From positions 576,001 to 640,000 of the forward strand of contig OZ245020.1 in NCBI GenBank assembly GCA_965223865.1: a DNA stretch of 64,000 nucleotides, written 5' to 3'. The translations under genes were made by a program, and so were the position numbers. Of this stretch, positions 28,859 to 44,557 are shown piece after piece (the first letter of the stretch is position 1; each line of letters opens with the position of its first letter). The notes under the pieces were generated by a model. That model worked only from the letters and a program-made list of their open reading frames with translations. It was not told where the DNA came from and ran no database searches. This stretch comes from Nitrosarchaeum sp. (GTDB taxonomy: Archaea; Thermoproteota; Nitrososphaeria; Nitrososphaerales; Nitrosopumilaceae).

Positions 28859-29018
28859 ATTCATTGATGAAATAAAATCTGGATAAAAAGTACAAACTAG
28901 TTTGTTTTAGTTATTTTATAATTTTTTGGATACCTCCAACAATAACCAGAAAATAATTTTATCTTTTACCTTGATCCGATATTTTTAATTTAAACTTAAT
29001 ATCATAACTTAATGAAAG

Positions 29019-29417
29019 TTGTTAGAACAAGGAACTCCTTACTACAAGTTGTACGATTCGATAGTTAATTTAGATTCAAAAATAAGATTTGTGACAATCA
29101 TAGATTCAAATGGTAGATTAATTTTAGGTGGCCAAAAAGATGGAATACAAAATTACTTGATTCCAGAGGATCAAAAAAAATCCCTCAAATCTGCAAGCAA
29201 AATGTGGGAGATTCGTAATCAATTTGTTGATTTTCTCGGTAAAGGAAAATACGCAATGGCAGAATATGAGAAAGTAAAACGATACACTTTCCCCTTAGAT
29301 AATACTAATTTGTTATATATCACTACTGAACCAGAACTAGAGCATAATTTCTTTATTAAGCAAATATTCAAATTATTAAATTATTACAAAATTAAATCAG
29401 ATTCAATTAAACAATAA
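29019..29417 (+). CDS. DUF6659-like (roadblock-like) protein
   Basis: LDSKIRFVTII...YAMAEYEKVKRYTFPL..LYITTE pattern typical of this expanded thaumarchaeal family. Confidence 0.75.
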   Translation: MLEQGTPYYKLYDSIVNLDSKIRFVTIIDSNGRLILGGQKDGIQNYLIPEDQKKSLKSASKMWEIRNQFVDFLGKGKYAMAEYEKVKRYTFPLDNTNLLYITTEPELEHNFFIKQIFKLLNYYKIKSDSIKQ

Positions 29418-29592
29418 CAAGCGAATTATTTTCAATATTACCAATAAATAAAAAAATCAAAAACTCTTTGTTAATTTTTTTTCAAATAATTACCGTCAAT
29501 TCGTAAATATTTTTAATAAAATCAAATTAAATGAAAATATTGTAGTTTATTTCTAAAAAATGCTATATAGTTGAATTTGATTAATTTGACAG

Positions 29593-30444
29593 ATGGAGGT
29601 TGTTGATAACTCTATAGTGGAACCTATTGAATTACGAATGATAAGACAATCAAAATTTCCAGTCCGATACAAACTCCCAAAAAATACTGCAGAATTTACA
29701 AATCTCAAATCAAGCATTAATGAGCATGGACTTTTACAGCCAATTGTAATTAGACCTCTAGAACATGGATTTGAAATAGTTGCAGGGCACAGAAGATTTG
29801 CAGCATGCAAATCATTACGTTGGAGGTTTATTCCCTGTAAAATACGCGACTTTTCTGATAAACAAGCATACGAAATTCAGCTAACTGAAAATATCCAAAG
29901 AAAATCAATGGACCCAATTGAAGAGGCTGAAGCTTATCAAAAATATGTAAATGAATTTGGTTGGGGAGGTGTAAGTGATCTTGCCAAAAAAATTGGAAAA
30001 AGTGAAGAATATGTCTCCCACAGAATGCAGCTACTTAAACTTCCAGCAAATATGAGAGAGAAAATTGCTCAAAATGACCTGAGCGTAAGCCAGGCTTTAG
30101 AACTTACAAATGTAGATGCTTCTCTGAAAAATGAATTTGTCGATGAAATTGTCAACAATAAACTAACTGTAAAACAAATTCGAACTATGAAGAAAAATTT
30201 TACTCCTTCACCAGATCCTTACACACCAAGAAAAAACAATGATTCAAAATCAATTAATTTGATAAAGAAAAGCAATCTGGCCTTAAAAGTAACCCTTTCT
30301 AGACTAGACGATCTTATTGAAGATGCTCATGGAATTAATAATAAACAGAAAGTCGAATTAATAGAGTTCTTGATGAGTCTTAGATTAAAAACTCATTCTA
30401 TGATTGATGATACCATCAAATTCAAAAAGAAATACTCAAAATAA
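29593..30444 (+). CDS. ParB/Spo0J-like CTPase with HTH; no adjacent parA
   Basis: GLLQPIVIRP, AGHRRFAA (GxxRxxA), ENIQR, PIEEAEAY, HTH LAKKIGKSEEYVSHRMQLLKLP. Confidence 0.93.
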   Translation: MEVVDNSIVEPIELRMIRQSKFPVRYKLPKNTAEFTNLKSSINEHGLLQPIVIRPLEHGFEIVAGHRRFAACKSLRWRFIPCKIRDFSDKQAYEIQLTENIQRKSMDPIEEAEAYQKYVNEFGWGGVSDLAKKIGKSEEYVSHRMQLLKLPANMREKIAQNDLSVSQALELTNVDASLKNEFVDEIVNNKLTVKQIRTMKKNFTPSPDPYTPRKNNDSKSINLIKKSNLALKVTLSRLDDLIEDAHGINNKQKVELIEFLMSLRLKTHSMIDDTIKFKKKYSK

Positions 30445-30451
30445 TATTCTA

Positions 30452-30991
30452 TCAAGTACCAAGAAACGGTGGAACCCATTCCTTGAGAAAGGTTTTGTAT
30501 TCTTTTTCTGTATATGTAAGAGCATAAAGTGATGCTTCTGTTTGTGGAACAAAATCATACACTTCATATGTCTGAATAATATCTCCAAACAAATTTCTGT
30601 AAATATCATTTTCTTCATCAGCCATGTCATTAGACAAAAAAGATTTCACTGTAATCCAATCATATCCTCCCCTTGTCCTTCCAGAAAACAAAACAAATGG
30701 TGCATCATTAAGATATTTCTTTAGACCAGCTAATCGCTTGGGAAGTGCTTGTGAAGTTCTAAACGTTACAAGATCTACTCTAATAACTCTATGAGGGAGT
30801 TTTTTTGCATCTACAGTAATGGTGTATCCCTTGATAATTTTTTCTTCTTCTAATCTTGAAATTCGTGATTCTATCTCTTCTTCAGTTAAATTATAATTAA
30901 ATCCCTTTAAAAAATCCCAAATTTCAAATGTACTCTGTTTTGAATTCTGGGATAGAGTTGAAATTATCAACTCATCAATTTTATCTATCAT
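30452..30991 (-). CDS. Lrp/AsnC family transcriptional regulator
   Basis: DKIDELII..L, RISRLEEEKIIKGY, C-terminal RAM-like GGYD. Confidence 0.85.
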   Translation of the reverse strand: MIDKIDELIISTLSQNSKQSTFEIWDFLKGFNYNLTEEEIESRISRLEEEKIIKGYTITVDAKKLPHRVIRVDLVTFRTSQALPKRLAGLKKYLNDAPFVLFSGRTRGGYDWITVKSFLSNDMADEENDIYRNLFGDIIQTYEVYDFVPQTEASLYALTYTEKEYKTFLKEWVPPFLGT

Positions 30992-31000
30992 TTGATATAC

Positions 31001-31016
31001 TAGTCTAATTCCACTA
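31001..31016. promoter_or_regulatory. Degenerate copy of the island palindrome, TAGTCTAATTCCACTA
   Basis: 12/16 match to TAGTCGATATCGACTA; 10 nt upstream of the asnC start, next to its TATA-like TTAAATAG. Confidence 0.4.
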
Positions 31017-31116
31017 TTTAATGATCATTACTAATCAGTAATTAGGGCTAAAACCCATTTTGTTTTGAAATAAATTATAATTTATTTTAATACAAGTTTT
31101 TACCTTTTTTACTACC

Positions 31117-33429
31117 ATGAGTGCGATTTTACCTGAAAATATTGGTTTTTTTGTCTTAATTGGAGTTGGTCTAATTATGGCATTATCTGTTTTACTTTTG
31201 GTTAAAGCTGAAACAAAATGGTTAGGTACTAGAAAAACATCTGAATGGTTCTATACTGCCGGCAGAACCATCAAAACTGGTTTAATTGCATCCTCTATTG
31301 TATCTGCCTGGACTTGGGCTGCCACTTTATTACAATCTTCTACTGTAACTTATGAATTTGGTTTAGCTGGTTCTTTTTGGTATGCTGCAGGAGCAAGTAT
31401 TCAAGTAATTTTGTTTTCAATTCTTGCAATTGAATTAAAACGAAAAGCTCCAATGACGCATACTTTCCCAGAAATGATTAATGTTCGATTTGGAAAACAA
31501 TCACACAAAGTTTTCTTATTTTTTGCACTTATGACAAATACAATTGTTACTGCAATGTTAGTTTTAGGAGGAGCTGCAGTCATTAATTCTCTTACAGGTG
31601 TTGACATTACTCTAGCTGCCTTTTTAATTCCTGTAGGAATTATTATTTACACAATATTTGGTGGACTAAAAGCAACATTTTTTGCTGAATATCTAAACGC
31701 TGCTTTAATTTTTGTTGTAGTTTTAGTTTTTGTAACAGTAATCTATTTTCTCACTCCTGAAATTGGTGGTATATCAGGCATGTATGAAAAGCTAGCCGCA
31801 GCTTCTATCCTAAAACCAGTCGAAGGCAATGCATTTGGAACTTACCTGACTTTGGCATCTGTTGGTGCATTGATATTTGGTATTATCAATATAGTTGGAA
31901 ACTTTGGAACTATATTCGTTGATCAGTCCTACTGGCAGAGAGCAATTGCTGCAAGACCAAAAGCCGCTACTGGTGGCTTTATCATGGGTGGATTGGCATG
32001 GTTTGCAATTCCTTTTACTTTGGCTACTACCTTAGGACTGGCTGCAATTGCAACTGGAGTTACACTTACTGAAAATGAAATTGGATTAGGATTAGTTGCT
32101 CCCACTGCTGCAGCAAACTTGATGGGAGATGTTGGCGCCATCCTGATTCTAACCGTATTATTTACAGCAGTTACTGCTGCAGGTTCGTCACAACTAGTTA
32201 GTGTGTCGTCTCTTGTAACCTATGATGTATTTCGTACCTATCTAAAACCCTCTTCTTCAGGCCGTGAATTAATGAGAATTTCAAGATTTACAATTCTTGG
32301 TTTTGGAATAGGCATGGGAATTTTAGCATCATTGCTATTTCAATCAGGATTTAGTTTACAATATGTTTATCTCATGATGGGAGTTTTGATTGGTTCTGCA
32401 GTTGCTCCGATTTCATTTTCTATTTTATGGAAAAAGACAAACAAACACTTTGCCACAATAGCTGCAATAGTTGGACTTGTTTGTGGTGTGTCAGCTTGGA
32501 TTGGTTCTGCAGGCTTTTTCTATGATGAAATAACTCTTTCTTCAACTGGTAATATGTTACCTCTTCTAATTGGTAACATTACTTCTATTACTGTTAGTTT
32601 AAGTATCACCATTATTGGAAGTTTGATAAAACCAGAAAACTTTGATTTTGGTCTTATGAAACAGAAAATTCTTGTTGTAGATGATAAGGTGCGATCTATG
32701 CTAAAACATGATACCAATGAGAAGATTCTTCAACAATCTCTAAATTTCTGCAAAAAAGCGGGTTTTTCCATATCTATCTTTTTGGTAATTGTATGGCCTG
32801 CATCATTCTATCTTTCTGAATTTGTTTTTGATGAACAATCTTTTCATCTTTGGGTATGGCTTGCAATAATATGGGCATTAGGTGCAGCTGGAATCATCAT
32901 ACTTCTTCCGTTACTTGAGGCTCGAAAAAGTATTGGTGAAATTTTTCATCGTGTTAATGTTGAATCCGATATGATTACACAACCCGAAAATAACTCCTTA
33001 TCTAAATCGTCTGAAGCTCCTCTATTGAAAATTTTGGTTCCTGTAGACGGTTCGGCTAAATCCCTTAATGCTCTTTATCATGCTAATTATCTTTTAAGGG
33101 GAGCTGTAAAAGTGAGGATTTACCTATTATATGTAATTGAATGGAGTGATGAAAATGAAGAAAATATGGATGAAGAACTTTCAACTCAGATTCAAGAGGA
33201 AGGAAAACTTGTTTTACGAAGTATTGTGGTGCCAAAACAGCTTAATGATTACAAACGTATTGTGAAATTAGGAGACCCGTCTGAAAAAATTGCTGAAGTT
33301 GCAGAAAAACTCAATGTTGATATGATTGTAATGGGGAAAAAGGGAATTGGTAAAACAGATTCTGATTTAGGTCATGTCACTAGAGGCGTATTGAATATTA
33401 GCTCAAAACCGGTTATCTTACTCGATTAA
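31117..33429 (+). CDS. dur3: DUR3-type Na+/H+:urea symporter (SSS family) fused to a C-terminal Usp domain
   Basis: SAWTWAATLLQS, WYAAGA, GNFGTIFVDQSYWQRAIAA; C-terminal KILVPVDGS...DMIVMGKKG...LGHVT Usp motifs. Confidence 0.9.
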   Translation: MSAILPENIGFFVLIGVGLIMALSVLLLVKAETKWLGTRKTSEWFYTAGRTIKTGLIASSIVSAWTWAATLLQSSTVTYEFGLAGSFWYAAGASIQVILFSILAIELKRKAPMTHTFPEMINVRFGKQSHKVFLFFALMTNTIVTAMLVLGGAAVINSLTGVDITLAAFLIPVGIIIYTIFGGLKATFFAEYLNAALIFVVVLVFVTVIYFLTPEIGGISGMYEKLAAASILKPVEGNAFGTYLTLASVGALIFGIINIVGNFGTIFVDQSYWQRAIAARPKAATGGFIMGGLAWFAIPFTLATTLGLAAIATGVTLTENEIGLGLVAPTAAANLMGDVGAILILTVLFTAVTAAGSSQLVSVSSLVTYDVFRTYLKPSSSGRELMRISRFTILGFGIGMGILASLLFQSGFSLQYVYLMMGVLIGSAVAPISFSILWKKTNKHFATIAAIVGLVCGVSAWIGSAGFFYDEITLSSTGNMLPLLIGNITSITVSLSITIIGSLIKPENFDFGLMKQKILVVDDKVRSMLKHDTNEKILQQSLNFCKKAGFSISIFLVIVWPASFYLSEFVFDEQSFHLWVWLAIIWALGAAGIIILLPLLEARKSIGEIFHRVNVESDMITQPENNSLSKSSEAPLLKILVPVDGSAKSLNALYHANYLLRGAVKVRIYLLYVIEWSDENEENMDEELSTQIQEEGKLVLRSIVVPKQLNDYKRIVKLGDPSEKIAEVAEKLNVDMIVMGKKGIGKTDSDLGHVTRGVLNISSKPVILLD

Positions 33430-33448
33430 CATACTTTAGTCATTCATT

Positions 33449-33466
33449 TTAGTCGACGTCGACTAA
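33449..33466. promoter_or_regulatory. Perfect 18-bp palindrome TTAGTCGACGTCGACTAA, candidate protein-binding site
   Basis: Exact self-complementarity; intergenic, ~33 nt upstream of the second dur3 TATA box; near-identical copy at 36926. Confidence 0.75.
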
Positions 33467-33485
33467 CTCATTCGTAATTTCTCAT

Positions 33486-33506
33486 CCGTGTACCACGGTT
33501 ATATAA
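33486..33506 (+). promoter_or_regulatory. Promoter of dur3-2: inverted repeat CCGTG-TAC-CACGG abutting TATA box TTATATAA
   Basis: Inverted repeat at 33486-33498 over the BRE position; TATA at 33499-33506. Confidence 0.55.
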
Positions 33507-33555
33507 AGAAATATTCTGCCTTAATTGCTAAGTAAATTAGATTTTCATTAATTTC

Positions 33556-35553
33556 GTGGATACGAAAAAGTCTACCCTTCTTTTGTTTTCCGTTCTAACA
33601 CTGACCATAGTTTCGTTTGCCAGTAATCCACAAACAGCTGAAGCTGCCGGCGCAATATCTGAAGGCTTCACTCTCGGAGAAGTTCTTGACGAATCCTGGG
33701 GTTGGTTTATTGTAGTTGGCTTGGGTGCCGTCTTTGCCATTGTAATTTCAGCTGAAATCAAAATTGAAGAAAAGTTTCTAGGTGTTGACCAAAGTTCAGA
33801 ATGGTTCAACACTGCAGGAAGAGTTATCAAAACCGGACTGACTGCAGCAGCAATAGTCTCTGCCTGGACTTGGGCTGCCACTTTGCTTCAATCATCAACC
33901 GTAGCGTACCTGTATGGTGTTAGTGGACCATTCTGGTATGCTGCCGGGGCTTCTATTCAGGTATTGTTATTTGGTATTTTGGCAATTGAATTGAAAAGAA
34001 AGGCACCAAATGCCCACACATTTTTAGAAATTATTAGAGCCAGATTTGGAAACGGCTCACACAAGGTTTTCCTTGTTTTTGCACTAATGACTAACATGAT
34101 AGTTACTGCCATGCTCCTTTTGGGAGGTTCTGCAGTAGTAAATGGTCTAACTGGCATGGATATCTCACTTGCTGCATTTTTGATACCAATAGGCGTGATG
34201 ATCTATACTCTGGTTGGTGGACTCAAAGCCACATTTGTTGCTGACTATATGCACACTATAATCATATTTGTTGTAATTCTGACATTTGTTGCTGCAGTTT
34301 ACATGAATTCTGACATTACAGGTGGCGTTGAAGGAATGTATGACAAACTGGTGGAGGCTGCCAGGATAAACCCCGTTGAAGGAAATGCGATGGGTGCATA
34401 TCTTACCATGGCCTCTCTGGGTGGATTGATGTTTGGTATCATCAATATAGTTGGAAACTTTGGTACTGTATTTGTTGACCAGGCGTACTGGCAGAGAGCA
34501 ATTGCTGCAAGACCATCTTCGACTGTAAAGGGATTCTTACTTGGCGGTGCATGTTGGTTTGCCATTCCATTTACTTTGGCTACTACGATGGGACTGACGG
34601 CGGTCGCGCTTGATGTAGATCTCACTCCAGAGCAAGTCCAACTAGGACTGGTAGTTCCAGCTGCAGCTTCAGTATTAATGGGTGAAGTTGGTGCAATCTT
34701 GGTACTAACAATGTTGTTTATGGCAGTAACATCAGCAGGTTCAGCTGAGCTTATTGCGGTATCGTCGCTGATAACTTATGATATTTACCGAACGTACAAG
34801 AATCCAAACGCCAGTGGCAAAACGCTGCTTAAAGTATCGCGTATGAGTATAGTTGGGTTTGGCCTAGGAATGGGCGGACTAGCAGTTATACTACTTGGTG
34901 CAGGATTGAGTCTAGGCTTTGTCTATCTTGCAATGGGTATTCTCATTGGTTCGGCAGTAATTCCTATTGCGATGACCATCTTATGGAAAGGTGCAAACAG
35001 GGTAGCCGCTACCATTGCACCAATCATTGGATTGATGGTATCTCTTACTGTTTGGTTAAGCACAGCAGCATCACTTCCAGCATATGGTGGTGAGATAAAT
35101 CTTGCAAGTCTTGGAGATAACTATTCGATGTTATTTGGAAACATTGCAGGAATATTGACTGGTGGTGCAGTTGTAATATTTGGTAGTTTGGCAAAGAAGC
35201 CCAAATTTGAATGGTCTGACCTTAAAGAAAGAATCACTCTAGTAGAGCAGACCCCCGCTGACATAGATGCAAGAGAGCAAGACGAAGCTGAGCTAAAAAA
35301 GGCCTTCAAGTTCAGTCTTAAAGGTGGAGGTATAATGACTCTCATACTAATCATAGCATGGCCAATGCCATTGTTTGCTGCAGACTACGTGTTTGATATA
35401 GGATTCTACTCATTGTGGGTGATAATCTCAATTGCATGGGTAAGCTTTGCAACCTTCTTCATTGTAGGATTGCCAATAATTGAGGCAAGAAAGGGACTGG
35501 CCCAAGTAATCAGTGGAAAGAAGACCGATTCTAAAGGAGGTACTCCAGCATGA
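33556..35553 (+). CDS. dur3: DUR3-type urea symporter (SSS family) with N-terminal signal-like extension
   Basis: SAWTWAATLLQS, GPFWYAAGA, GNFGTVFVDQAYWQRAIAA; next to urease genes. Confidence 0.92.
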   Translation: MDTKKSTLLLFSVLTLTIVSFASNPQTAEAAGAISEGFTLGEVLDESWGWFIVVGLGAVFAIVISAEIKIEEKFLGVDQSSEWFNTAGRVIKTGLTAAAIVSAWTWAATLLQSSTVAYLYGVSGPFWYAAGASIQVLLFGILAIELKRKAPNAHTFLEIIRARFGNGSHKVFLVFALMTNMIVTAMLLLGGSAVVNGLTGMDISLAAFLIPIGVMIYTLVGGLKATFVADYMHTIIIFVVILTFVAAVYMNSDITGGVEGMYDKLVEAARINPVEGNAMGAYLTMASLGGLMFGIINIVGNFGTVFVDQAYWQRAIAARPSSTVKGFLLGGACWFAIPFTLATTMGLTAVALDVDLTPEQVQLGLVVPAAASVLMGEVGAILVLTMLFMAVTSAGSAELIAVSSLITYDIYRTYKNPNASGKTLLKVSRMSIVGFGLGMGGLAVILLGAGLSLGFVYLAMGILIGSAVIPIAMTILWKGANRVAATIAPIIGLMVSLTVWLSTAASLPAYGGEINLASLGDNYSMLFGNIAGILTGGAVVIFGSLAKKPKFEWSDLKERITLVEQTPADIDAREQDEAELKKAFKFSLKGGGIMTLILIIAWPMPLFAADYVFDIGFYSLWVIISIAWVSFATFFIVGLPIIEARKGLAQVISGKKTDSKGGTPA

Positions 35554-36071
35554 CATCTTGTGCTGGATGTGGCTGTGTCTTAGGTTTCAAGAAATACAAA
35601 TTCCACAAGATGTGGCGTATCCCTGGATATTACTGCAAAAAATGTATGCACACGTTAGGACAAGACTTTGATGATCATGGCAAGTTGACTCTACCCCAGC
35701 GCCCATGTGATCTTTGTAAAGTGGAATTATTCTTCCCAAAGAGAATTACAAAACAAGGCAAAGTACATCGTTACTGTACGGTTTGTCATCAAGCAGTACA
35801 AAGTGGTGCAGTGCCAACAGATCCTAAAGCCAGACACATTCCAAACAAGCTTCCACATGTGATGATGGTATTTGCAGGACTGGGAGTATTGATGATGGCA
35901 TTAGGTTTGATATTTACACTTAGCTCAGGTGGTGAGACAAACATGGTAAACATTATCTTCGGTTCAGTAACAACAGCACTAGGATTTTTGCTATTCAAAA
36001 AGACAATAAAGTCACGCAGTCTGCTTTTAGGAAAGACAAGACAACAACAAGAGACAGAGGCATTGAGGTGA
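35550..36071 (+). CDS. Cys-rich (four CxxC) protein with two C-terminal TM helices
   Basis: CAGC, CKKC, CDLC, CTVC; ATGA overlap with the dur3-2 stop. Confidence 0.8.
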   Translation: MTSCAGCGCVLGFKKYKFHKMWRIPGYYCKKCMHTLGQDFDDHGKLTLPQRPCDLCKVELFFPKRITKQGKVHRYCTVCHQAVQSGAVPTDPKARHIPNKLPHVMMVFAGLGVLMMALGLIFTLSSGGETNMVNIIFGSVTTALGFLLFKKTIKSRSLLLGKTRQQQETEALR

Positions 36072-36075
36072 TAAA

Positions 36076-36399
36076 ATGAAGAGTATCCGTGCAGTAATTC
36101 CAGAGAGAAATTTTGATGCAGTAAATGACGCACTGCATAAAATCGGAGTATCAGGATTAACCGTGTATAACAGCAAAGGCAGAGGCAAAGAGCCACCAAG
36201 ACCTAATCAGATGGGTCACTGGTTTTACTTTTCTGAATTTGGTGATAACAGCTCAATTCTGGTTCTATCCAAGGATGAAGATGTTGGCAAAATTACAGAA
36301 GCAATAAGAGAAAACGCAAATGTTGGAAAAATATTCGTTAGTCAGCTAGAAGAGTTGATAGATATTAAAAACAACACAAGAGGCGAAGAGGCACTTTAA
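36076..36399 (+). CDS. glnB: PII-family nitrogen regulatory protein (divergent)
   Basis: MKSIRAVI, GVSGLTV..SKGRG, GKIFVS, TRGEEAL. Confidence 0.9.
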   Translation: MKSIRAVIPERNFDAVNDALHKIGVSGLTVYNSKGRGKEPPRPNQMGHWFYFSEFGDNSSILVLSKDEDVGKITEAIRENANVGKIFVSQLEELIDIKNNTRGEEAL

Positions 36400-36925
36400 T
36401 TATTCCCCAAAAATACCAATAAAAAACCAGTAATTCATGCGTAGAATCATGTATCATACAAGATACATAGATTAAATCACAATCCTCATCATCTTTGTTC
36501 AATTTCTATTCATGCAAATGAAAAACAAGATTTTTTCTGGGAATGTTATCTACTAACACTTCCATAGTTACTCTTTTAATCTCCTTGAGAAATGAATGGT
36601 ATTTTGGTTTGAAAAATCGCTCTAACAAGTTTTTTTGAACAGCTTCAGACATTCTATTTTTTCTTATTCCCATAACCGCATTATATCCACAAATTATAAG
36701 AAATTGTTCCAAGTCTGTTTTTCCTTTTTTTTGATATTTTCTTTAGTTACTTCATACAATATGTCAAGATTTTTTTCATGATTATTACAGAATTCAATTT
36801 TCTTAGTAACTACATTATCATCAAATTGAAAAAAATATTTGATCTGAATCATCACATTAATTACGTAAATACAAAAAATAGCATTTTATCAAATAAAATG
36901 ATTTAAAGAGAATTGTCTTTTAATT

Positions 36926-36941
36926 TAGTCGATATCGACTA
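36926..36941. promoter_or_regulatory. Perfect 16-bp palindrome TAGTCGATATCGACTA
   Basis: Exact palindrome, 14/16 identical to 33450-33465, intergenic. Confidence 0.75.
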
Positions 36942-37046
36942 GTATCTAGTTAGTCTGTCTGGTTAAATTTCTAGAATAATTTAACATGACAAATAATAAT
37001 TAAACACGATACTTTCTATAGGTTTAATTTTAAAATAAAATAATAC

Positions 37047-37156
37047 ATTTGGAAGCCGATATGAAACTACTTTAACCATCGTCTGGTCAACCGTCTAATG
37101 AAGCAAATGGTTTTACTGGGAAATTCTTGACAAAGCCTCATTATCGGCTTCCAAAT
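37047..37156. ncRNA. Putative structured RNA (or MITE) closed by a perfect 15-bp inverted repeat
   Basis: ATTTGGAAGCCGATA (37047-37061) pairs with TATCGGCTTCCAAAT (37142-37156); inner AACCAT/ATGGTT stem; GC richer than flanks. Confidence 0.45.
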
Positions 37157-37179
37157 ATTCCTCATAAATTTTTAAGATA

Positions 37180-37219
37180 AACATTTTTAGAAAATAAAAA
37201 TTTATTTTCTAAAAATGTT
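37180..37219. repeat. AT-rich inverted repeat, 19-bp arms with 2-nt spacer
   Basis: AACATTTTTAGAAAATAAA-AA-TTTATTTTCTAAAAATGTT. Confidence 0.85.
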
Positions 37220-37362
37220 ATCTCCACGAAAATTATTGAGTTTTCTGATATTGCCATTTATCTTAGTGACGATATTAGAATAATTAGACTACAAAATTTG
37301 TTGTAATAAACTGATAAAATTCTTAATACATTCATTATTGATATTAATTACACGATAAAGAA

Positions 37363-38115
37363 TTGGTTGAAGAAATTATCTCTACAATAACAGATTTCAC
37401 TCCAGCTCTAATATTGGGCTTAGGATTAGTTATTGGAATTGAACATGCATTTGAGCCCGATCATATGGCAGCCATAGGAACTCAAATGATAAAAAAAAAG
37501 ACAAAAAATACTTCAAAGAATCTTTTCAAATCTGCCTTTACTAAATCATCCATACTTGGTGCTTTCTGGGGGGCAGGTCACACCACTACCCTTGTAATAA
37601 TAGGACTATGCGTCTATCTTTTTGCAATAACTATTCAAGATGAGATATTTTCTAGCCTTGAATTTGTTGTAGGGGTAATGTTAGTTACGCTTGGAATTAG
37701 TGCCATTTGGAACAAAAAATTCTTCAAATTTCAACATAGACATCCTCACCATCATGTAGATGGGAATCTCCATTTTGATGTTCATATGCATAATGATGCA
37801 AATCATAAACATGGTCATAAATCCTACATAATTGGCCTAATACACGGATTGGCAGGCAGCGGAAGCCTAGTTACCCTGACAGCAGCTACCTTTGGAAATA
37901 TAGAGATGGCTCTAAGTTTTATTTTGATATTTGGATTTGGCTCTCTAATTGGAATGGTAATTGTCAGTGGATTGATGGGTCTACCATTTGTTTTTGCAAA
38001 TAAGACCAAAAATCTTAACAAAATATTTCGTTACGTTACAGGTGCAATTAGCTTATCTATTGGGTTTAGTGTAATGTTTGATATTGGAATATTGTCTAAT
38101 CTATCTGGATTCTAA
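37363..38115 (+). CDS. Nickel transporter / urease accessory UreH-like (NiCoT-related)
   Basis: HAFEPDH, WGAGH, His-rich loop HRHPHHH...HKHGH, GLIHGLAGS. Confidence 0.88.
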   Translation: MVEEIISTITDFTPALILGLGLVIGIEHAFEPDHMAAIGTQMIKKKTKNTSKNLFKSAFTKSSILGAFWGAGHTTTLVIIGLCVYLFAITIQDEIFSSLEFVVGVMLVTLGISAIWNKKFFKFQHRHPHHHVDGNLHFDVHMHNDANHKHGHKSYIIGLIHGLAGSGSLVTLTAATFGNIEMALSFILIFGFGSLIGMVIVSGLMGLPFVFANKTKNLNKIFRYVTGAISLSIGFSVMFDIGILSNLSGF

Positions 38116-39035
38116 TTTTTTCGTAATTTACTAAATGACGCATTAAGAATCTTTTTCCTACAAACTTTAAGTGTTTCATAAACTGCCTCAAAAATATCTT
38201 CAGTCAAATTTCCTAGTATTCTAACCATTATTCCTGATTCATCTGGGAGAATAGATGTTCCAATTGAGACCTCTAATTTTTTTTTGATTTTACTAATCTC
38301 TTGTTCTAATTCTTGTATGTCTTTTTTTTTCGAAAGGATGTAAATGGTACCAACCACATTATAGTTCCCTAAAATACCGAAGTCATTCAAATTTTGTTTT
38401 TTTGGTTCAATCTTCATATTCTCTAAAAATCTAATTTTTTTATCTTGATTCTTACAATCCAATTTTAGATAACAAATATCATACTCAAAAGATTCTCCCA
38501 TTGCTACTCTTCCAGGAGTTAAAATTTCTGAATAAATCAAAGTAGAATTGTCATGAACTTTTAGATTCACTTTTTGATAATATCTAGAGTTTTTGTAAGG
38601 AATTATCTGGTCAGGAATAAATTCAAGATAACAGTTCTCACCAACTGAAAGATTCACAATCTGTGATGCCGAGTTTGAATTCATGCTGTAAATTCTAGTC
38701 GCACCTTGAGTAGTAATGTGGGCGATTGCCTTGTTTTGCAATGAAATATCAATTCTGTATCTGTCTCCTTGTAAAATTCCTCCAGAAGGTGAAAGGACAT
38801 AGAGATATGCCATTTCTGGAAGTGATTTTTCAGGGTATAATACACGTTGAATTTGTAATGGGACTTGAGAAAATTGGTTTGTAACTACTGTCTTTCCTAA
38901 GATATCTCTTTTCAACTCCAAATCAAGAATGCCTACTTTACCTGATTTTCCAACTTCTAGTTGTTTTACTTTGGAGTTGAAAACCTGAATCTCCTTTGGT
39001 ATGTCATCTGGTGTACAATATTCTAGTTTATTCAA
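38112..39035 (-). CDS. ureD: Urease accessory protein UreD
   Basis: SPSGGILQGD, TTQGATRIY, PDQIIPY, EILTPGRVAMGESF. Confidence 0.95.
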   Translation of the reverse strand: MNKLEYCTPDDIPKEIQVFNSKVKQLEVGKSGKVGILDLELKRDILGKTVVTNQFSQVPLQIQRVLYPEKSLPEMAYLYVLSPSGGILQGDRYRIDISLQNKAIAHITTQGATRIYSMNSNSASQIVNLSVGENCYLEFIPDQIIPYKNSRYYQKVNLKVHDNSTLIYSEILTPGRVAMGESFEYDICYLKLDCKNQDKKIRFLENMKIEPKKQNLNDFGILGNYNVVGTIYILSKKKDIQELEQEISKIKKKLEVSIGTSILPDESGIMVRILGNLTEDIFEAVYETLKVCRKKILNASFSKLRKN

Positions 39036-39038
39036 AAA

Positions 39039-39695
39039 TCATACCTTTTGTGTAATTGCTGATTTTGGTACAGATCCCAATAAAACATCATGAATTATAT
39101 GCTCAGTTACTTTCATTACCCCTTCATCAGTTTTACAGTTAACGAATTCAAATGGTTTATCTTTTCTAATTTTTTGTGCATCAATTCTCATAACTTCCAA
39201 GTCTGCATCCACCATCTCTGCAAGATCAATTTTGTTGATCACTAAAAGATCACAGCTCTCAATTCCTAAACCACCTTTTCTTGGATACTTGTCACCTCCT
39301 GCTACATCAATTATGTAAATAAAATAATCTGCTAAAATGGGACTAAATGTTGTTGTAATGTTGTCACCACCACTTTCGATAATTATTAGATCAAGATCAG
39401 GATGCTCTACTTCCATTTCTTCTATTACTGATAGATTCATGGAAGGGTCTTCTCGAACTGCAGTATGAGGACATCCACCAGTAGCAAGACCTATAACTAA
39501 ATTTTCAGGAAGTAGTCCTCTTTTTGTAGCTAAATTGTTTCTCATTCGGTCTGCATCTTCTTTTGAAATTACATCATTTGATATTATACTTACACTGTAT
39601 CCTTTTTTTGCTAACATCGGAACTAGTCTCTCAATGAGCATACTTTTTCCTGAACCAACAGGCCCACCAATACCAATTCTTGGAATATGAGTCAT
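39039..39695 (-). CDS. ureG: Urease accessory GTPase UreG
   Basis: [34 protein letters not shown]. Confidence 0.97.
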
Positions 39696-39712
39696 GTAAA
39701 AAAATCCAATTT

Positions 39713-40420
39713 TTACGTAATAAACATTTTAGAATCCATTTTCTCATGTGACATCTGGGTAATGTCTACCTGTGGAGCAAACTGCCACATCTCTGAAAGT
39801 GATTTATTTGAATACTCTTTGATAGTTTGACTGATAATTGGTTTTATGCTGTGAATAATTTTTTGACCTTCAAAATGCTGAATTATTCCTAACCTTAAGG
39901 CAGCACCTACCATACTGACAGTAAAACCATAAAGCATCATCATCATGCTTTTTTCTTTTCTAATCTTTAGTGCATTACAACAAACTGCAAATGCAACAGG
40001 AAATACTCCATACGCTTTTTTTTGTAAAATATTGTTATTATAGTGATTCAAAATTTCATCATCTTTTACAAATTCGGCCACACATTTGACTAATTGAACA
40101 CCTGATCTTATTGAAGCATCCCGAATTTCTTTTATTGATTTTGTAGCAAAGATCAGGCTGTCTGCTTCAATAACTTTGTCATAATCATGATTTTTTGCAC
40201 CCTCAAATGTATTTGAAAGGGCAACACAATCTGATGGTCCTAACTGTTGATTGATGTTTACTGTGATAACTTTAATTAAATCATCCATTACTCTAATTTT
40301 CTTCTCCGCAAATAGATATTCTAATCCATTTGATGTAGCAAAAATACCTGAAGGAAAAAAAGAATCAGATAACTGCATTACTCCTAGTTCTTGTTCTATC
40401 TCATCAATGTTCATGTACAT
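39713..40420 (-). CDS. ureF: Urease accessory protein UreF
   Basis: [10 protein letters not shown]...SNGLE; AALRLG...GQ; [12 protein letters not shown]-terminus. Confidence 0.95.
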
Positions 40421-40880
40421 CAGCTCCCGAGTGTGGTAAAAATATTCGCTCTTCTACTTTCATCTCAATATAGTCAATTATACTATGAAATAATTTTCTA
40501 AATACTTCTTCTTCTGAATCTGCTTGAATTGGAAATAAGACCCCATCATTTTGGATAGATATGGGTCTATGTCTGTTTCCAATGATGTGTCCTAAAAGCA
40601 CTAAAACATCATTTGTGTTTGTCTTTACTTTTACAGAAATTATTTTTTCTGGTAACTGCTCTATGGCAATTTTTCTCTCATCATTTTTTATAATATCACC
40701 ATTACGAAGTTTTACGCCCGGGGTTAAATTCAAACCAACATCTGTTCCATGATCAGTTTTTCTTCTCAAAATTCTTTTCTCTAATTCCATTCGTGTAACT
40801 TTGAGTTTTTCATAATTTTCTTGATTTTGCTCAAATCCTTTATCAAAAATATTTCCAATTGGTGAATTTACTTCTATCAC
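40404..40880 (-). CDS. ureE: Urease accessory Ni chaperone UreE
   Basis: TDHGTDVGL, LRNGD, LGHIIGNRH, HEH tail. Confidence 0.93.
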   Translation of the reverse strand: MIEVNSPIGNIFDKGFEQNQENYEKLKVTRMELEKRILRRKTDHGTDVGLNLTPGVKLRNGDIIKNDERKIAIEQLPEKIISVKVKTNTNDVLVLLGHIIGNRHRPISIQNDGVLFPIQADSEEEVFRKLFHSIIDYIEMKVEERIFLPHSGADVHEH

Positions 40881-40965
40881 AAATAATTTTAAATTTTGAC
40901 AAAGTTAAATTTTCTCAAATATTATTGGATTAATTATTAAATAATATAGCTAATTATTCAATTCA

Positions 40966-41268
40966 ATGATGCTTACTCCGCGAGAATTAGAAAAATTAAA
41001 CGTATTTGTTGCAGCAGAACTGGCCCGTAGAAGAAAAAATCGAGGTTTGAAATTAAATCATCCTGAAGCAGTATCCCTTATTTCTGATCATATTTTAGAG
41101 GGTGCAAGAGACGGACGAACAGTACCAGAACTTATGAGCTCTGGAAAAAAAGTTCTAACAAAAGATGATGTTTTACCCGGTGTTGCAGAACTTATTCATT
41201 CCATTCAAGTAGAAGCAACTTTTGAAGATGGAACTAAACTAGTAACAGTCCATGATCCAATAGTGTGA
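40966..41268 (+). CDS. ureA: Urease gamma subunit
   Basis: [35 protein letters not shown]. Confidence 0.98.
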
Positions 41269-41642
41269 AAAATATGATTCCTGGAGAGTATTTTCTATCT
41301 GATGAGCCCATAATTGCAAATGAAGGAAAATCTACTAAATCTATTAGTGTTAAAAATACTGGTGATAGACCAATTCAGGTAGGATCTCACACACATTTCT
41401 TTGAAGTAAACAAGGCACTTGAATTTCAAAGAGAGCATGCATATGGTCACCATCTGAATATTCCGGCGGGAACCTCAGTAAGATTTGAGCCTGGAGAAAC
41501 AAGAGAAGTTGAATTAACTGAATTTGGTGGAAAAAAAATTGTCTATGGATTTAGTGGTCTTGTAAATGGATCTTTGTCTGAAAAACAAGAAGAGGCAATT
41601 AAAAAAGCAAAAGAAAAGAGATTTCGAGGAATAGGATCATGA
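41265..41642 (+). CDS. ureB: Urease beta subunit
   Basis: [36 protein letters not shown]. Confidence 0.98.
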
Positions 41643-43351
41643 CCCTGACTATTCCAAGAAAAAATTATGCTGATTTGTTTGGACCAACCACTGGCGATAG
41701 GATTCGTCTTGCTGATACTGAATTGATTATTGAAATTGAAAAAGATTTGATCAAATATGGAGATGAATCTGTCTTTGGTGGAGGAAAAAGTGTAAGAGAT
41801 GGCCTAGGACAGGCAAGTGGTGTTTCAAGAGAGAACTCTCTTGATCTTGTAATAACAAATGCTATTGTGATGGATCCAGTTTTAGGAATCATTAAAGCTG
41901 ACATTGGGGTAAAAGATGGAAAAATTGTAGGCGTTGGAAACGCCGGAAACCCAAATGTTATGGATGACATTGATATGATAATTTCATCAAACACTGAGGT
42001 AATAGCAGGTGAGAATACAATTTGTACTCCTGGTACCATTGATTCACATATTCATTTTATTTCTCCGCAACAAGCAATACATGCAATTTGTAATGGTACT
42101 ACTACAATGATTGGAGGGGGAACAGGTCCAGCTGATGGAACAAATGCAACAACATGTACTCCTGGAGAATGGAACATTCAAAGAATGATAGAATCTATTG
42201 ATGAACTTCCTCTAAACTTTGGTTTTCTTGCAAAAGGGAATGATTCTCTTGAAACTGCATTAATTGAACAAATCAAAGCAGGAGCTTGTGGATTAAAATT
42301 GCATGAGGATTGGGGAACAACCCCTGCAGCAATTGATTCGGCATTAAGTGTAGCTGATAAAACTGACATCCAAGTTGCAATTCATACAGATACCCTAAAT
42401 GAATGTGGATTTGTTGATGATACAATTGAGGCAATTGCTGGAAGAACAATTCATACTTATCACACAGAAGGAGCTGGTGGTGGTCATGCCCCTGACATTA
42501 TGAAAATTGCAGGTGAAGCAAACATTCTTCCATCATCTACAAATCCTACAAGGCCTTTTACTGTAAATACACTTGCTGAACATCTTGATATGATGATGGT
42601 TTGTCATCATCTAAATTCATCAGTTCCTGAGGATGTCTCCTTTGCAGAATCACGTATTAGAGGAGAAACAATTGCAGCTGAAGATGTTCTTCATGATATT
42701 GGAGCCTTGAGTATGATGTCCTCCGATAGTCAGGCCATGGGAAGGGTAGGAGAAGTAACCACCCGAAACTGGCAGACAGCTGATAAAATGAAAAAGATGA
42801 AAGGCAAATTGCCTGAAGACAATGACAAAAATGATAATCATAGAGTAAAGAGATACCTTGCAAAAATTACTATCAATCCTGCCATCACTCATGGCATTTC
42901 AGAATATGTTGGCTCACTCCAACCAGGTAAATTGGCTGATATTGTGATTTGGTCACCTCAATTTTTTGGTGTAAAACCCAAAATCATAGTCAAAGGAGGC
43001 TTTATTGCATATTCATTGATGGGTGATCCTAATGCTTCAATTCCAACGACTGAACCAGTATTATATCGACCGATGTTTGGTTCTCTTGGTGAGACAAAAC
43101 GTTTTACTTCTGTAACTTTTACATCAAAACTCGCATTAGATAATGGTCTTGAAGTAAAAGTAACATCAAAAAAGAAATTGGTTCCTGTAAAAAACTGTCG
43201 TAAAATTGGTAAAAAAGACATGTTGTACAATGATCTTACTCCACAAATTGAGATTAATCCTGAAACCTACGAAGTTAAAGTTGATGGTGACATTGCAACC
43301 ATAGATCCTGCAGACAAAATTTCTATGGCAAGACTTTACAACTTGTTTTGA
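41639..43351 (+). CDS. ureC: Urease alpha subunit
   Basis: [49 protein letters not shown]. Confidence 0.99.
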
Positions 43352-43458
43352 AGTATCACCAACTTGATTATTTTTTCAACTATCATAACCATTGATGTAA
43401 TTACCACTATTGAAAAAAAGTTGCTCAGATTAAATATAATAAATCAGTATTTTAGTTA

Positions 43459-43548
43459 ATGGGTAAAATTTGTGATGCATTGTTAAAACTTGAGGGCAAA
43501 TATACAAAACATCACTCCGGTTATTTAGGCGAGAAAGTATGGATATAA
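43459..43548 (+). CDS. Putative 29-aa microprotein MGKICDALLKLEGKYTKHHSGYLGEKVWI
   Basis: ATG ~25 nt after TATA-like TTAAATATAA; overlaps the next small ORF. Confidence 0.35.
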   Translation: MGKICDALLKLEGKYTKHHSGYLGEKVWI

Positions 43549-43655
43549 CAGTTCTTTCCTCTACTATAGGTGTTAGTTTTGCAATTGTGGCTCTTTGGTA
43601 TATTGCAATGCGTCAAGATAAAGAAATTGAAGAACAAGGAAGTATGACAGCTTAG
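43539..43655 (+). CDS. Putative 38-aa single-TM microprotein
   Basis: MDITVLSSTIGVSFAIVALWYIAMRQDKEIEEQGSMTA: hydrophobic helix plus charged tail. Confidence 0.55.
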   Translation: MDITVLSSTIGVSFAIVALWYIAMRQDKEIEEQGSMTA

Positions 43656-43834
43656 CAATTAAAATTATTTTAAAGAAAAATACTTCGTTGAAAATCACTT
43701 TTTTTCTTTTTTTAAATCTGCATTAGTCCTGAAAAAAATATCATCAGAAAAATACATTATTTTTCTTGGCAATAATTGAAAATCCATAACAAATAATGCT
43801 TTTTTATTTCAACAAGTCATTTTAGTACCAAGAA

Positions 43835-44275
43835 ATGATTCCAAAAATTAAAAAAATTCTTGTTTTATTGGATGGTTCTCAAAACTCATTTCGTGCCCTT
43901 GATCAAGCAATTATTCTTGCTAAAGCAAGCGACTCTATAATTATTGGACTAAACGTTGTTTCATTTTATACGATGGGCTTTCAACCTTTTACTTCAATTA
44001 CAGTTCACTCTCCAATTGAAAAAATATTGGAAAAAGAATCTTTACAATTCCTAAAACAGGCAAAATCAAGATGCAATGAAAATGGTGTCTCCTTTTCAAG
44101 TATTATAATTCACGGTCCAGAGGGTCGTACAATAATTTCATTTATTCAAAAAAATAAATTTGATCTTGTAGTTGTTGGTTCTCGAGGCAGAGGTTCAATT
44201 AGAGAAATATTTCTTGGCAGTGTTTCAAACTATGTTTTACATAGAACACACACTCCTGTACTTGTTGTAAAATAA
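43835..44275 (+). CDS. Universal stress protein
   Basis: KILVLLDGS, DLVVVGSRG, FLGSVS..V, PVLVVK. Confidence 0.95.
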   Translation: MIPKIKKILVLLDGSQNSFRALDQAIILAKASDSIIIGLNVVSFYTMGFQPFTSITVHSPIEKILEKESLQFLKQAKSRCNENGVSFSSIIIHGPEGRTIISFIQKNKFDLVVVGSRGRGSIREIFLGSVSNYVLHRTHTPVLVVK

Positions 44276-44392
44276 TTTGGTGGTATTTGAATTACAAGAT
44301 ACAAATTGCAAATACAATATTAATTAAAAATAATTTACAAGAAAATTATTTTGTTCCTTTTATTATGTAAAAAGATTTTCTAACCCAATATC

Positions 44393-44557
44393 TTACCAAG
44401 TACCTGTTCTTCCCTCAAAGTTCGGATCCATTTTCTTTTCAGGAACATTTCCATGTGCTTTTTTCATATGTCTTTTTAGTCGTTCAAAATTATGCAATTC
44501 CAATCCACATTCTTTGCATTTTGTTTCATTTTTATTTTCTTTACGAAATAATCCCAA
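44393..44557 (-). CDS. 54-aa C2H2 zinc-finger protein
   Basis: TTG start; MGLFRKENKNETKCKECGLELHNFERLKRHMKKAHG... has Cx2C-x12-Hx4H. Confidence 0.75.
   Translation of the reverse strand: MGLFRKENKNETKCKECGLELHNFERLKRHMKKAHGNVPEKKMDPNFEGRTGTW

Follow-up and report, generated by a model that had tools for sequence, protein, structure and literature searches.

KorB, the repressor of the bacterial plasmid RK2, is paired with the ParA-type protein IncC, works with KorA, and has some of its operators away from promoters. VirB of Shigella flexneri is described as an orphan ParB-like regulator, a CTP-dependent anti-silencer which loads at a specific site upstream of promoters and retains the GxRR motif (PMC10770331). 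A ParB-like gene accompanied by two 16-bp palindromes resides in the urea island of Nitrosarchaeum sp. (assembly GCA_965223865.1, contig OZ245020.1), an archaeon with a genome of 2,012,789 bases and a G+C content of ~34%. The island has been analyzed in a stretch of 64,000 nucleotides (the window; G000:C1:576001-640000, where G000 denotes this genome), of which it spans the 29.6-44.3 kb interval according to a Pfam scan and a map of open reading frames (ORFs). Comparison of related genomes makes it probable, with ample room for doubt, that the ParB-like protein, and not its AsnC-like neighbor, binds the palindromes and regulates the urea-uptake and urease genes of ammonia-oxidizing archaea (AOA). 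Judged from its sequence, the protein appears as a ParB-fold regulator of the KorB/VirB kind, here archaeal, chromosomal and tied to a metabolic island.

The palindromes conform to the 16-bp consensus TAG-Y-CGA-YR-TCG-R-CTA. A previous inspection of the letters (hereafter, the sequence-only reading) had noticed two perfect palindromes, and no other full copy. These two, TAGTCGACGTCGACTA at 33450-33465 (site 1) and TAGTCGATATCGACTA at 36926-36941 (site 2), are the only exact copies in the entire genome, in which 0.0017 copies are expected under a base-composition model, and both are located inside the urea island. Shuffling the window 100 times never yielded three or more matches at up to three mismatches. 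For the degenerate 12-mer core GYCGAYRTCGRC, 0.33 genomic occurrences are expected and three are found, two of which are sites 1 and 2. The third match, AAGTCGATATCGGCAG at C1:1230098, is found in a region featuring no ORF of at least 100 aa within ~1.3 kb. Weaker copies, signaled in the sequence-only reading at 31001-31016 and 37276-37291, had to be abandoned, as neither was recovered by a scan allowing up to three mismatches. The 31001 copy lies between an AsnC-like gene and the gene of a sodium:solute symporter fused to a universal stress protein domain (SSF-Usp), and is not conserved at the corresponding position of 21 related loci, whose only recurrent elements there are TATA-like boxes.

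The occurrence of gene and motif has been surveyed in a set of 201 genomes of the family. As kindred genomes do not represent independent samples, no P-values are attached to the counts. Orthologues of the ParB-like protein (type 1) were identified at E <1e-70 in 40 of the 201 genomes. Genome G002 was left out, since its protein clusters with a non-urea paralogue, away from any urea gene. All the 39 remaining genomes carry ureC, a gene detected in 98/201 genomes (unpublished G092 included), and the ParB-like gene mostly resides 1-25 kb from it, on the same contig. A class-wide sample revealed full-length ParB-like relatives in 60/201 genomes, corresponding to 26 of 57 genera. The 16-mer, with at most one mismatch, marks 18 of the 201 family genomes, and is intergenic within the urea island in 11 of them. 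Matches located inside long ORFs in the other seven (G006, G012, G037, G059, G151, G164, G188), as second matches in G041 and G141, were taken as chance or coding matches.

Island copies take two positions, upstream of a DUR3-like transporter gene of the sodium:solute symporter (SSF) type, as site 1, or upstream of a small gene, as site 2. In relatives, the first is usually found just past ureC or the SSF-Usp gene, the second (G030, G091, G107, G141) before the small gene or before a gene in front of it, encoding a secreted protein of 357-363 aa. Co-occurrence was scored in the 800 bp upstream of every DUR3-like gene in the fetched islands; G091, G043, G113 and G174, where contigs end or the stretch is not covered, were not scored. 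The exact degenerate core was found in 30 of 35 genomes with the ParB-like gene, and in none of nine genomes which lack this gene and have the transporter beside ureC, where the best matches have at least two mismatches. G033 and G110 have 1-mismatch intergenic copies only. G094 has two copies 118 bp before the aligned gene start, and falls outside the 30 owing to the estimate of the start codon. Gene and motif segregate together also within one genus (g24), both being found in G024, G137, G157 and G166, and neither in G068, G116, G180 and G186. In the comparisons made, no island gene except the ParB-like one is present and absent along with the motif. The data, which answer a co-occurrence scan proposed in the sequence-only reading, support the notion of a link between motif and ParB-like gene, and of both with urea genes.

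The association extends to more distant microorganisms. In family f3, in which ParB-like proteins are 55-58% identical to the window protein, the array of ParB-like, AsnC-like and SSF-Usp genes recurs, and the same 16-mer is located ~90-145 bp upstream of ureA in 4/4 loci. A 1-mismatch copy was found ~85 bp upstream of ureA in G270 (family f2) and G314 (family f3). Location upstream of the transporter or ureA is held across at least three families. In G080 and G006 the motif separates the stop codon of the ParB-like gene from that of the AsnC-like gene. Tandem arrays of the motif were identified in G124 (5.4 units of 64 bp, 100% identical, locus L059 4129-4472) and G110 (2.9 units of 27 bp, locus L050 14512-14588 and 19347-19462), the latter occurring twice via duplication of the transporter region. 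The distance from the TATA-like box measures 9-34 nt (17-34 nt in the window, 9 nt in G028) in some islands, and hundreds of bases, or arrays, are found in others. The center of the motif varies only as YR, and arms change symmetrically, as in GCCGACATCGGC. Variants with GTCGAC or GCCGAC arms do not sort into clear specificity classes.

Elements of the island are listed below, with the data on which the assignments are based.

29593..30444, plus strand: orphan ParB-like gene, 283 aa (Pfam ParB_N, HTH_ParB)
30452..30991, minus strand: divergent Lrp/AsnC-like protein, 179 aa (weak LrpA matches; topology of the AlphaFold2, AF2, model)
31117..33429, plus strand: SSF-Usp transporter, 770 aa (Pfam SSF, Usp)
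33450..33465, no strand: palindrome site 1 (motif scan)
33499..33508, plus strand: TATA-like box TTATATAAAG of the DUR3-like operon (read from the sequence; predicted only, with no mapped transcription start)
33556-35553, plus strand: DUR3-like SSF transporter (Pfam SSF)
35550-36071, plus strand: conserved 173-aa Cys-rich protein (conserved pair with the DUR3-like transporter in relatives)
36076-36399, plus strand: PII protein (Pfam P-II)
36506..36853, minus strand: small conserved gene, 116-132 aa in relatives, frameshifted in the window (tblastn)
36926..36941, no strand: palindrome site 2 (motif scan)
37363..38115, plus strand: NicO/DsbD_2-like membrane protein, putative Ni transporter (Pfam DsbD_2 6.6e-8; NicO 3.4e-4, below the cut-off)
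38112-40880, minus strand: ureD, ureG, ureF, ureE (Pfam UreD, cobW/UreG; ORF map)
40966-43351, plus strand: ureA, ureB, ureC (ORF map; tblastn queries)
43835..44275, plus strand: stand-alone universal stress protein, 146 aa, after ureC (Pfam Usp 3.3e-30)

The AsnC-like gene is transcribed towards the ParB-like gene and away from the SSF-Usp gene, which encodes the putative first urea transporter of the island. DUR3-like transporter, 173-aa protein and PII protein are encoded by a putative operon (33556..36399). The first two form a pair conserved in relatives. The window urease proteins, used as tblastn queries, retrieved the urease clusters of the relatives.

Site 1 is located 21 bp past the SSF-Usp stop codon, 33 bp upstream of the TATA-like box and ~90 bp upstream of the DUR3-like gene. 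Site 2 precedes the small minus-strand gene (36853-36506) by 73 bp and the NicO-like gene by 435 bp; it is a promoter-side element of the small divergent gene, and not obviously that of the Ni-transporter gene. The targets assigned to the palindromes in the sequence-only reading have to be revised in part. The DUR3-like position is conserved (30/35), and direct control of the Ni transporter from site 2 is unlikely. Similarly, no site is found at the ureABC or ureEFGD promoters in the window, but sites upstream of ureA in other families leave room for control of urease there.

The short distance of site 1 from a stop codon, a feature shared by several paralogue palindromes located within 30 bp of stop codons, would suit another explanation, in which the binder of the palindromes is encoded elsewhere, or the palindromes work as DNA or RNA structures (cruciforms, or terminators or insulators separating the two transporter genes), and the link with the ParB-like gene reflects hitch-hiking. 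The motif, however, is also found where no gene ends, as upstream of ureA in f3. A center restricted to YR and symmetric changes in the arms are typical of sites bound by protein dimers, and a perfect palindrome with no loop makes a poor hairpin. The tracking of the motif by the ParB-like gene, alone among island genes, is also at odds with hitch-hiking, and we deem this explanation quite improbable.

The description of the 29593-30444 product as a bacterial-type ParB featuring GHRR, ENIQR and a helix-turn-helix (HTH) domain is borne out by profile searches and alignment. The protein matches the Pfam families ParB_N (PF02195, 6.3e-20) and HTH_ParB (PF17762, 4.2e-20), and the NCBIfam family TIGR00180 (124.5 bits, cut-off 58.45). 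The match to TIGR04285 has an E-value of 4.2e-47, yet is below the cut-off. The best PDB match is Bacillus subtilis Spo0J (6sdk, 1.5e-28, residues 9-199 aligned), and further matches include Noc (3.7e-27) and KorB (8qa8, 6.9e-6). ParB, Noc and KorB (8qa9, TMq 0.54) are also the top Foldseek matches of the AF2 model. The model has a predicted local distance difference test (pLDDT) score of 81.9, and is made of a ParB nucleotide-binding domain, an HTH domain, a linker (~205-215) which is disordered and of low confidence, and a conserved C-terminal helical hairpin (217-282), in which block means of pLDDT are mostly 86-93, decreasing to 71 in the last residues. Residues G65, R67, R68, E99, N100, Q102 and R103, corresponding to the GxRR and ENxQR pocket motifs, are invariant in 25 aligned orthologues, and GHRR and ENIQR as such are invariant or nearly so.

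When the archaeal protein is aligned to B. subtilis Spo0J, residue P23 corresponds to the Gln of YQPR, and H66 to the Glu of GERR. Column 66 is occupied by His in 22 and by Tyr in 3 of the 25 orthologues, and none of them has Gln in column 23. The equivalent residues Q52 and E93 are described as the catalytic residues of Myxococcus xanthus ParB; alanine variants are reported to bind nucleotide and close, but hydrolyze poorly and leave DNA more slowly (10.1101/2021.05.05.442810). VirB is reported to retain one of the two residues, and to have weak CTPase activity (PMC10770331). By alignment, both M. xanthus-type CTP hydrolysis residues are replaced in the archaeal protein, for which the term CTPase may therefore be a misnomer.

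No ParA/CbiA-type gene is found in the window, as stated in the sequence-only reading. The nearest PF01656 match, at G000:C1:570537, is ~35 kb from the ParB-like gene, and AAA_31 matches lie farther away. The ParA-binding motif [LFI]G[KR]G[LFI] is absent in 25/25 orthologues.

These features set the AOA system apart from its closest relatives. ParB/Spo0J-parS and Noc provide the best matches in sequence and structure, and the sequence of the AOA protein resembles those of chromosomal Spo0J and Noc more than those of plasmid ParBs. The sites are also alike, being even 16-bp palindromes with a YR center, sometimes located at the own gene. In contrast to ParB/Spo0J and Noc, the AOA protein has neither a ParA nor a ParA-binding peptide, is confined to urease-bearing genomes, and has both the catalytic Gln and Glu replaced; moreover, the AOA system has one to six sites, all within one metabolic island. 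KorB, which is among the sequence and fold matches, similarly combines a ParB N-terminal domain with an HTH domain, and is a regulator with a palindromic operator. The AOA protein differs from KorB in being archaeal and chromosomal, without ParA and linked to a metabolic island, and in having a helical hairpin at the C-terminus and both hydrolysis residues replaced. VirB is likewise an orphan ParB-like protein which has kept GxRR and has an incomplete catalytic pair, but counteracts H-NS on a virulence plasmid, whereas the AOA protein is chromosomal; to our knowledge, archaea have no H-NS. In the archaeal pNOB8 system ParA is present, and site-specific DNA binding is performed by AspA. The pNOB8 ParB has a ParB/Srx fold (Foldseek match 5k5d, 4.8e-6), and is cited as part of a segregation system (PMC12704722). 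SerK is also archaeal and features the same fold (NCBIfam SerK, 3.5e-4, far below the cut-off), but is a serine kinase enzyme without an HTH domain.

With no ParA, no ParA-binding peptide, and a distribution restricted to urease-bearing genomes, the system does not look like a ParABS segregation system, and a pure segregation role is unlikely. The ParB-like protein and the palindromes might still belong to a module, relic or working, for the partition or maintenance of a mobile urea island, or serve to organize the chromosome, and not be involved in transcription. The distribution of the island is patchy (ureC in 98 and the ParB-like gene in 39 of 201 genomes), and tandem arrays of sites resemble centromeres. 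The urea island of Nitrosopelagicus brevis U25 is described as a 15-gene indel relative to strain CN25 (10.1101/175141), and orphan ParBs are reported to be often linked to mobile elements (PMC12704722). These data are compatible with such a module, but the lack of a nearby ParA and of the ParA-binding motif does not suit partition. The position of the sites, fixed upstream of the transporter or ureA in at least three families, and the existence of same-genus islands which have urease and transporter genes with neither the ParB-like gene nor the motif also disagree with it. A module of this type is very improbable.

A second type of ParB-like protein, with ParB_N and HTH_ParB domains, resides in genera g5 and g10. 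Type-2 proteins measure 249 aa, are 25-28% identical to the window protein, and are related to the type-1 profile with an hhalign probability of 98%. They are encoded next to urease genes, a 530-aa SSF transporter, and a separate 154-aa Usp protein. The type-2 palindrome, AGTTCGA-NNN-TCGAACT, measures 17 bp. The exact palindrome is unique per genome, and found at the 3' end of the ParB-like gene in 5/5 genomes searched. Near-copies are located ~23 nt upstream of the TATA-like box of the transporter in 4/4 loci, and between the ureC stop codon and a small gene in the same four loci. No homologue of the AsnC-like protein was detected by tblastn in the four loci, and a 173-aa protein of the type-2 island proved unrelated to the AsnC-like profile by hhalign. 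Two divergent ParB types thus carry different but related palindromes, placed alike in urea islands, and the type-2 system amounts to an independent replicate of the first.

Palindromes accompany also some more distant ParB-like paralogues, 37-45% identical. These repeats are perfect, measure 16-22 bp, and feature a GC-core. They overlap the stop codon of the paralogue gene, or are located within ~30 bp of it, in L108, L109, L110 (genome G298) and L114 (G301), and reside inside the gene in L107 and L115 (genus g43) and L111 (G298). No palindrome was found near the gene in L005, L067, L068, L112 and L113. The four palindromes of G298 are each unique as exact copies in the 3.4-Mb genome, and one has a second copy with two symmetric mismatches. 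L005 corresponds to a second orphan ParB_N gene in G000 (C1:198798-199613, L005 1462-2277), which encodes a 271-aa protein featuring GQRR and ENIHR, and is found beside a CBS-domain-like ORF. In G006 (L068) and G307 (L112), paralogous ParB-like and AsnC-like genes form a pair located away from urea genes. Neighbors of the two pairs include a SHOCT-domain protein and a small ORF of 118-121 aa.

The AsnC-like protein is the natural competitor for the palindromes. It matches LrpA in the PDB (1i1g, 5.2e-5) and in NCBIfam (3e-7, 30.4 bits against a cut-off of 250), and no Pfam family at E up to 0.05. All sequence matches are weak, but the AF2 model (pLDDT 75) features a winged HTH, a RAM-like beta-alpha-beta-beta-alpha-beta domain, and C-terminal helices. 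The mean column identity of the gene is 78%. Orthologues were identified in 36/201 genomes, all included among the 39 with the ParB-like gene, and no case of an orthologue without the ParB-like gene was met among the 201 genomes; matches to the AsnC family at large were found in 98/201 (unpublished G077 included). In relatives, the SSF-Usp gene always adjoins the AsnC-like gene.

The sequence-only reading had named this protein as the alternative binder. As such, it would bind the palindrome as a ligand-responsive dimer or octamer upstream of the transcription factor B recognition element (BRE) and TATA box, activating or repressing the DUR3-like promoter, and the ParB-like protein would do otherwise. 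Its winged HTH and RAM-like domains, high conservation, and presence in 36 of the 39 genomes are in keeping with this role, and archaeal Lrp-type activators bind just upstream of the TATA box. The known published Lrp-type sites, however, are odd-length and have an AT-rich center, whereas the 16 bp of the motif form an even palindrome, as in parS and in the site of Noc. Furthermore, the motif outlives the AsnC-like gene. In G038 the latter is reduced to a remnant with three stop codons, and the ParB-like gene and the motif TTGTCGACGTCGACTA are kept. No AsnC-like orthologue was found by profile search in G028, G270 and G314, all of which retain ParB-like gene and motif. G028 is assembled in one contig and 99% complete, and its motif, CTGCCGACATCGGCTA, is followed by a TATA-like box after 9 nt. 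In type-2 islands palindromes accompany a ParB-like gene, and no AsnC-like homologue was found in the four loci searched by tblastn. The SSF-Usp transporter is also missing in G028 and G038. Because they have been lost together in these genomes, the AsnC-like gene and the divergent SSF-Usp gene can be viewed as one module, and the ParB-like gene and the motif as another; the AsnC-like protein most likely acts separately, regulating the SSF-Usp transporter gene divergent from its own. The comparison supports the view that the motif tracks the ParB-like gene rather than its neighbor, and binding of the palindromes by the AsnC-like protein is rather unlikely, which takes most of the weight from the earlier suggestion.

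The two proteins might act together, as KorB and KorA. The ParB-like protein would load at the palindrome and slide, and be captured or locked by an AsnC-like protein located near the promoter and responsive to a metabolite. Strict adjacency of the genes and their co-occurrence in 36/39 genomes would be accounted for, as would the paralogous pairs of G006 and G307 and the motif placed between the two stop codons in G080 and G006. The four lineages which keep ParB-like gene and motif without the AsnC-like gene are hard to reconcile with a joint system, and no second conserved operator was found in the AsnC/SSF-Usp intergenic region of 21 loci. Joint action is, in our opinion, unlikely.

Regulation by the ParB-like protein alone can be envisaged as follows. 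A dimer would recognize the palindrome via the ParB-type HTH domains. Nucleotide, CTP by homology, would bind at the GxRR/ENxQR pocket and close the N-terminal gate. The C-terminal hairpins would hold the dimer, leaving a clamp on DNA beside the TATA box of the DUR3-like operon. Other loading sites would be located before the small gene and, in soil lineages, before ureA. Since Pro23 and His66 replace both hydrolysis residues, the closed state is expected to be long-lived, as proposed for VirB. Binding of CTP, loading and sliding of the clamp, and effects at a distance are all extrapolated from known ParB proteins. Variable distances from promoters, arrays and 3'-end copies fit a loading site better than the rigidly placed site of an activator.

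Action on promoter access is favored. Because the site is upstream of the TATA box, there is a slight lean towards activation or insulation of a strong DUR3-like promoter. Of the two SSSF urea transporters encoded side by side in Ca. Nitrosopelagicus brevis U25, one is reported to be among the most abundant transcripts, 139-fold above ureC, and the other to be expressed at low level (10.1101/175141). From gene order, the highly expressed transporter is presumably the one preceded by the motif, and the transcript pattern would also lean towards activation or insulation. Repression relieved on urea fits as well. An element of the form TTSAAT-N-(G)CTAAGTAAA is found at ~33525-33545, ~20 nt downstream of the DUR3-like TATA-like box. 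It is conserved in L025, L029, L034, L037 and L046, as in G038, which has no intact AsnC-like gene, and could be an initiator, a leader element, or a second operator.

Several observations weigh against regulation by the ParB-like protein. The support comes from co-occurrence among related genomes, and two genomes with the ParB-like gene (G052 and G154) have no motif within 800 bp upstream of the transporter. ParB-like and AsnC-like genes co-occur in 36/39 genomes, and the two proteins may act jointly, or the AsnC-like protein may be the binder in most lineages. The C-terminal hairpin matches no Pfam family, and is a predicted dimerizer only. The ParB fold is reported to be able to use ATP or GTP (PMC12704722); for this reason, and because the catalytic residues are replaced, dependence on CTP is uncertain. 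A palindrome at the 3' end of a gene could be a structural or termination element, and a site upstream of a TATA box suits a classical archaeal activator equally well.

Other features of the island have been recorded. The 173-aa Cys-rich protein (35550-36071) matches no Pfam or NCBIfam family, and its gene always follows the DUR3-like gene, both in genomes which have and in genomes which lack the ParB-like gene. The small minus-strand gene also matches no Pfam or NCBIfam family. Its intact 117-aa relative from G030 aligns to the window in two tblastn pieces, in frames -1 and -2, near a run of A residues. Contigs assembled from public runs over 36300-37400 break at 36708 and 36793 in 4/4 runs, and one 138-nt contig (X1) bridges the gap with letters unchanged; contig breaks at the A-run neither prove nor exclude length variation there. 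The frameshifted gene may be a pseudogene, or contain a slippery run or a variable tract. The region preceding the NicO-like gene contains two repeats with no Rfam match, one inverted and perfect (15 nt, 37047-37061/37142-37156, 80-nt spacer), the other a near-contiguous palindrome made of 19+19 nt (37180-37219). No riboswitch was found near the Ni-transporter-like gene in an Rfam scan of 29000-44500. The only match above threshold was 5_ureB_sRNA, at 41809-42080 on the minus strand, antisense within ureB/ureC (47.5 bits, gathering score 40). It may possibly be a mere reflection of the conserved urease coding sequence.

ParB proteins of archaea have received attention in other contexts. In a 2025 survey, canonical ParB-HTH fusions are described as scattered in archaea and unlikely to be involved in segregation, and no function is given (PMC12704722). 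Enrichment of Spo0J/ParB in sponge Thaumarchaeota has been read as chromosome partitioning (PMC9289680). The words regulator, promoter, ParB and Lrp are absent from a 2025 paper on the use of urea by marine AOA (PMC12686405). No paper linking ParB to urease or urea genes in AOA was retrieved in a search of the available literature.

If the ParB-like protein regulates urea genes as proposed, it would be the first archaeal transcription factor of the ParB type, and the first ParB-type factor whose regulon is chromosomal and metabolic. Much of archaeal nitrification, both in soils and in the ammonium-poor ocean, is sustained by urea. The operator, now defined, and the protein likely to bind it provide a testable handle on the switching of AOA to urea, and gene and motif a marker which separates regulated from unregulated urea islands in metagenomes. 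For the biology of ParB proteins, it is a natural example of a member which has lost both hydrolysis residues and whose C-terminal domain is new.

A broader view can be put forward as a tentative one, which we hold as doubtful. The bacterial chromosome-segregation clamp ParB might have been turned, in Nitrososphaeria, into a family of gene-specific transcription regulators, each with its own parS-like palindrome. Having kept the nucleotide pocket and lost the hydrolysis residues, these proteins would work as nucleotide-sensing switches rather than timers. Within such a family, and with equal reserve, types 1 and 2 might control the uptake of urea and its cleavage by urease, and the further paralogues with palindromes at their own stop codons would be other members. 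The synthesis of CTP from UTP takes its nitrogen from glutamine or ammonia. Should this be true, one may speculate that the level of CTP could report the nitrogen status of the cell directly to urea promoters.

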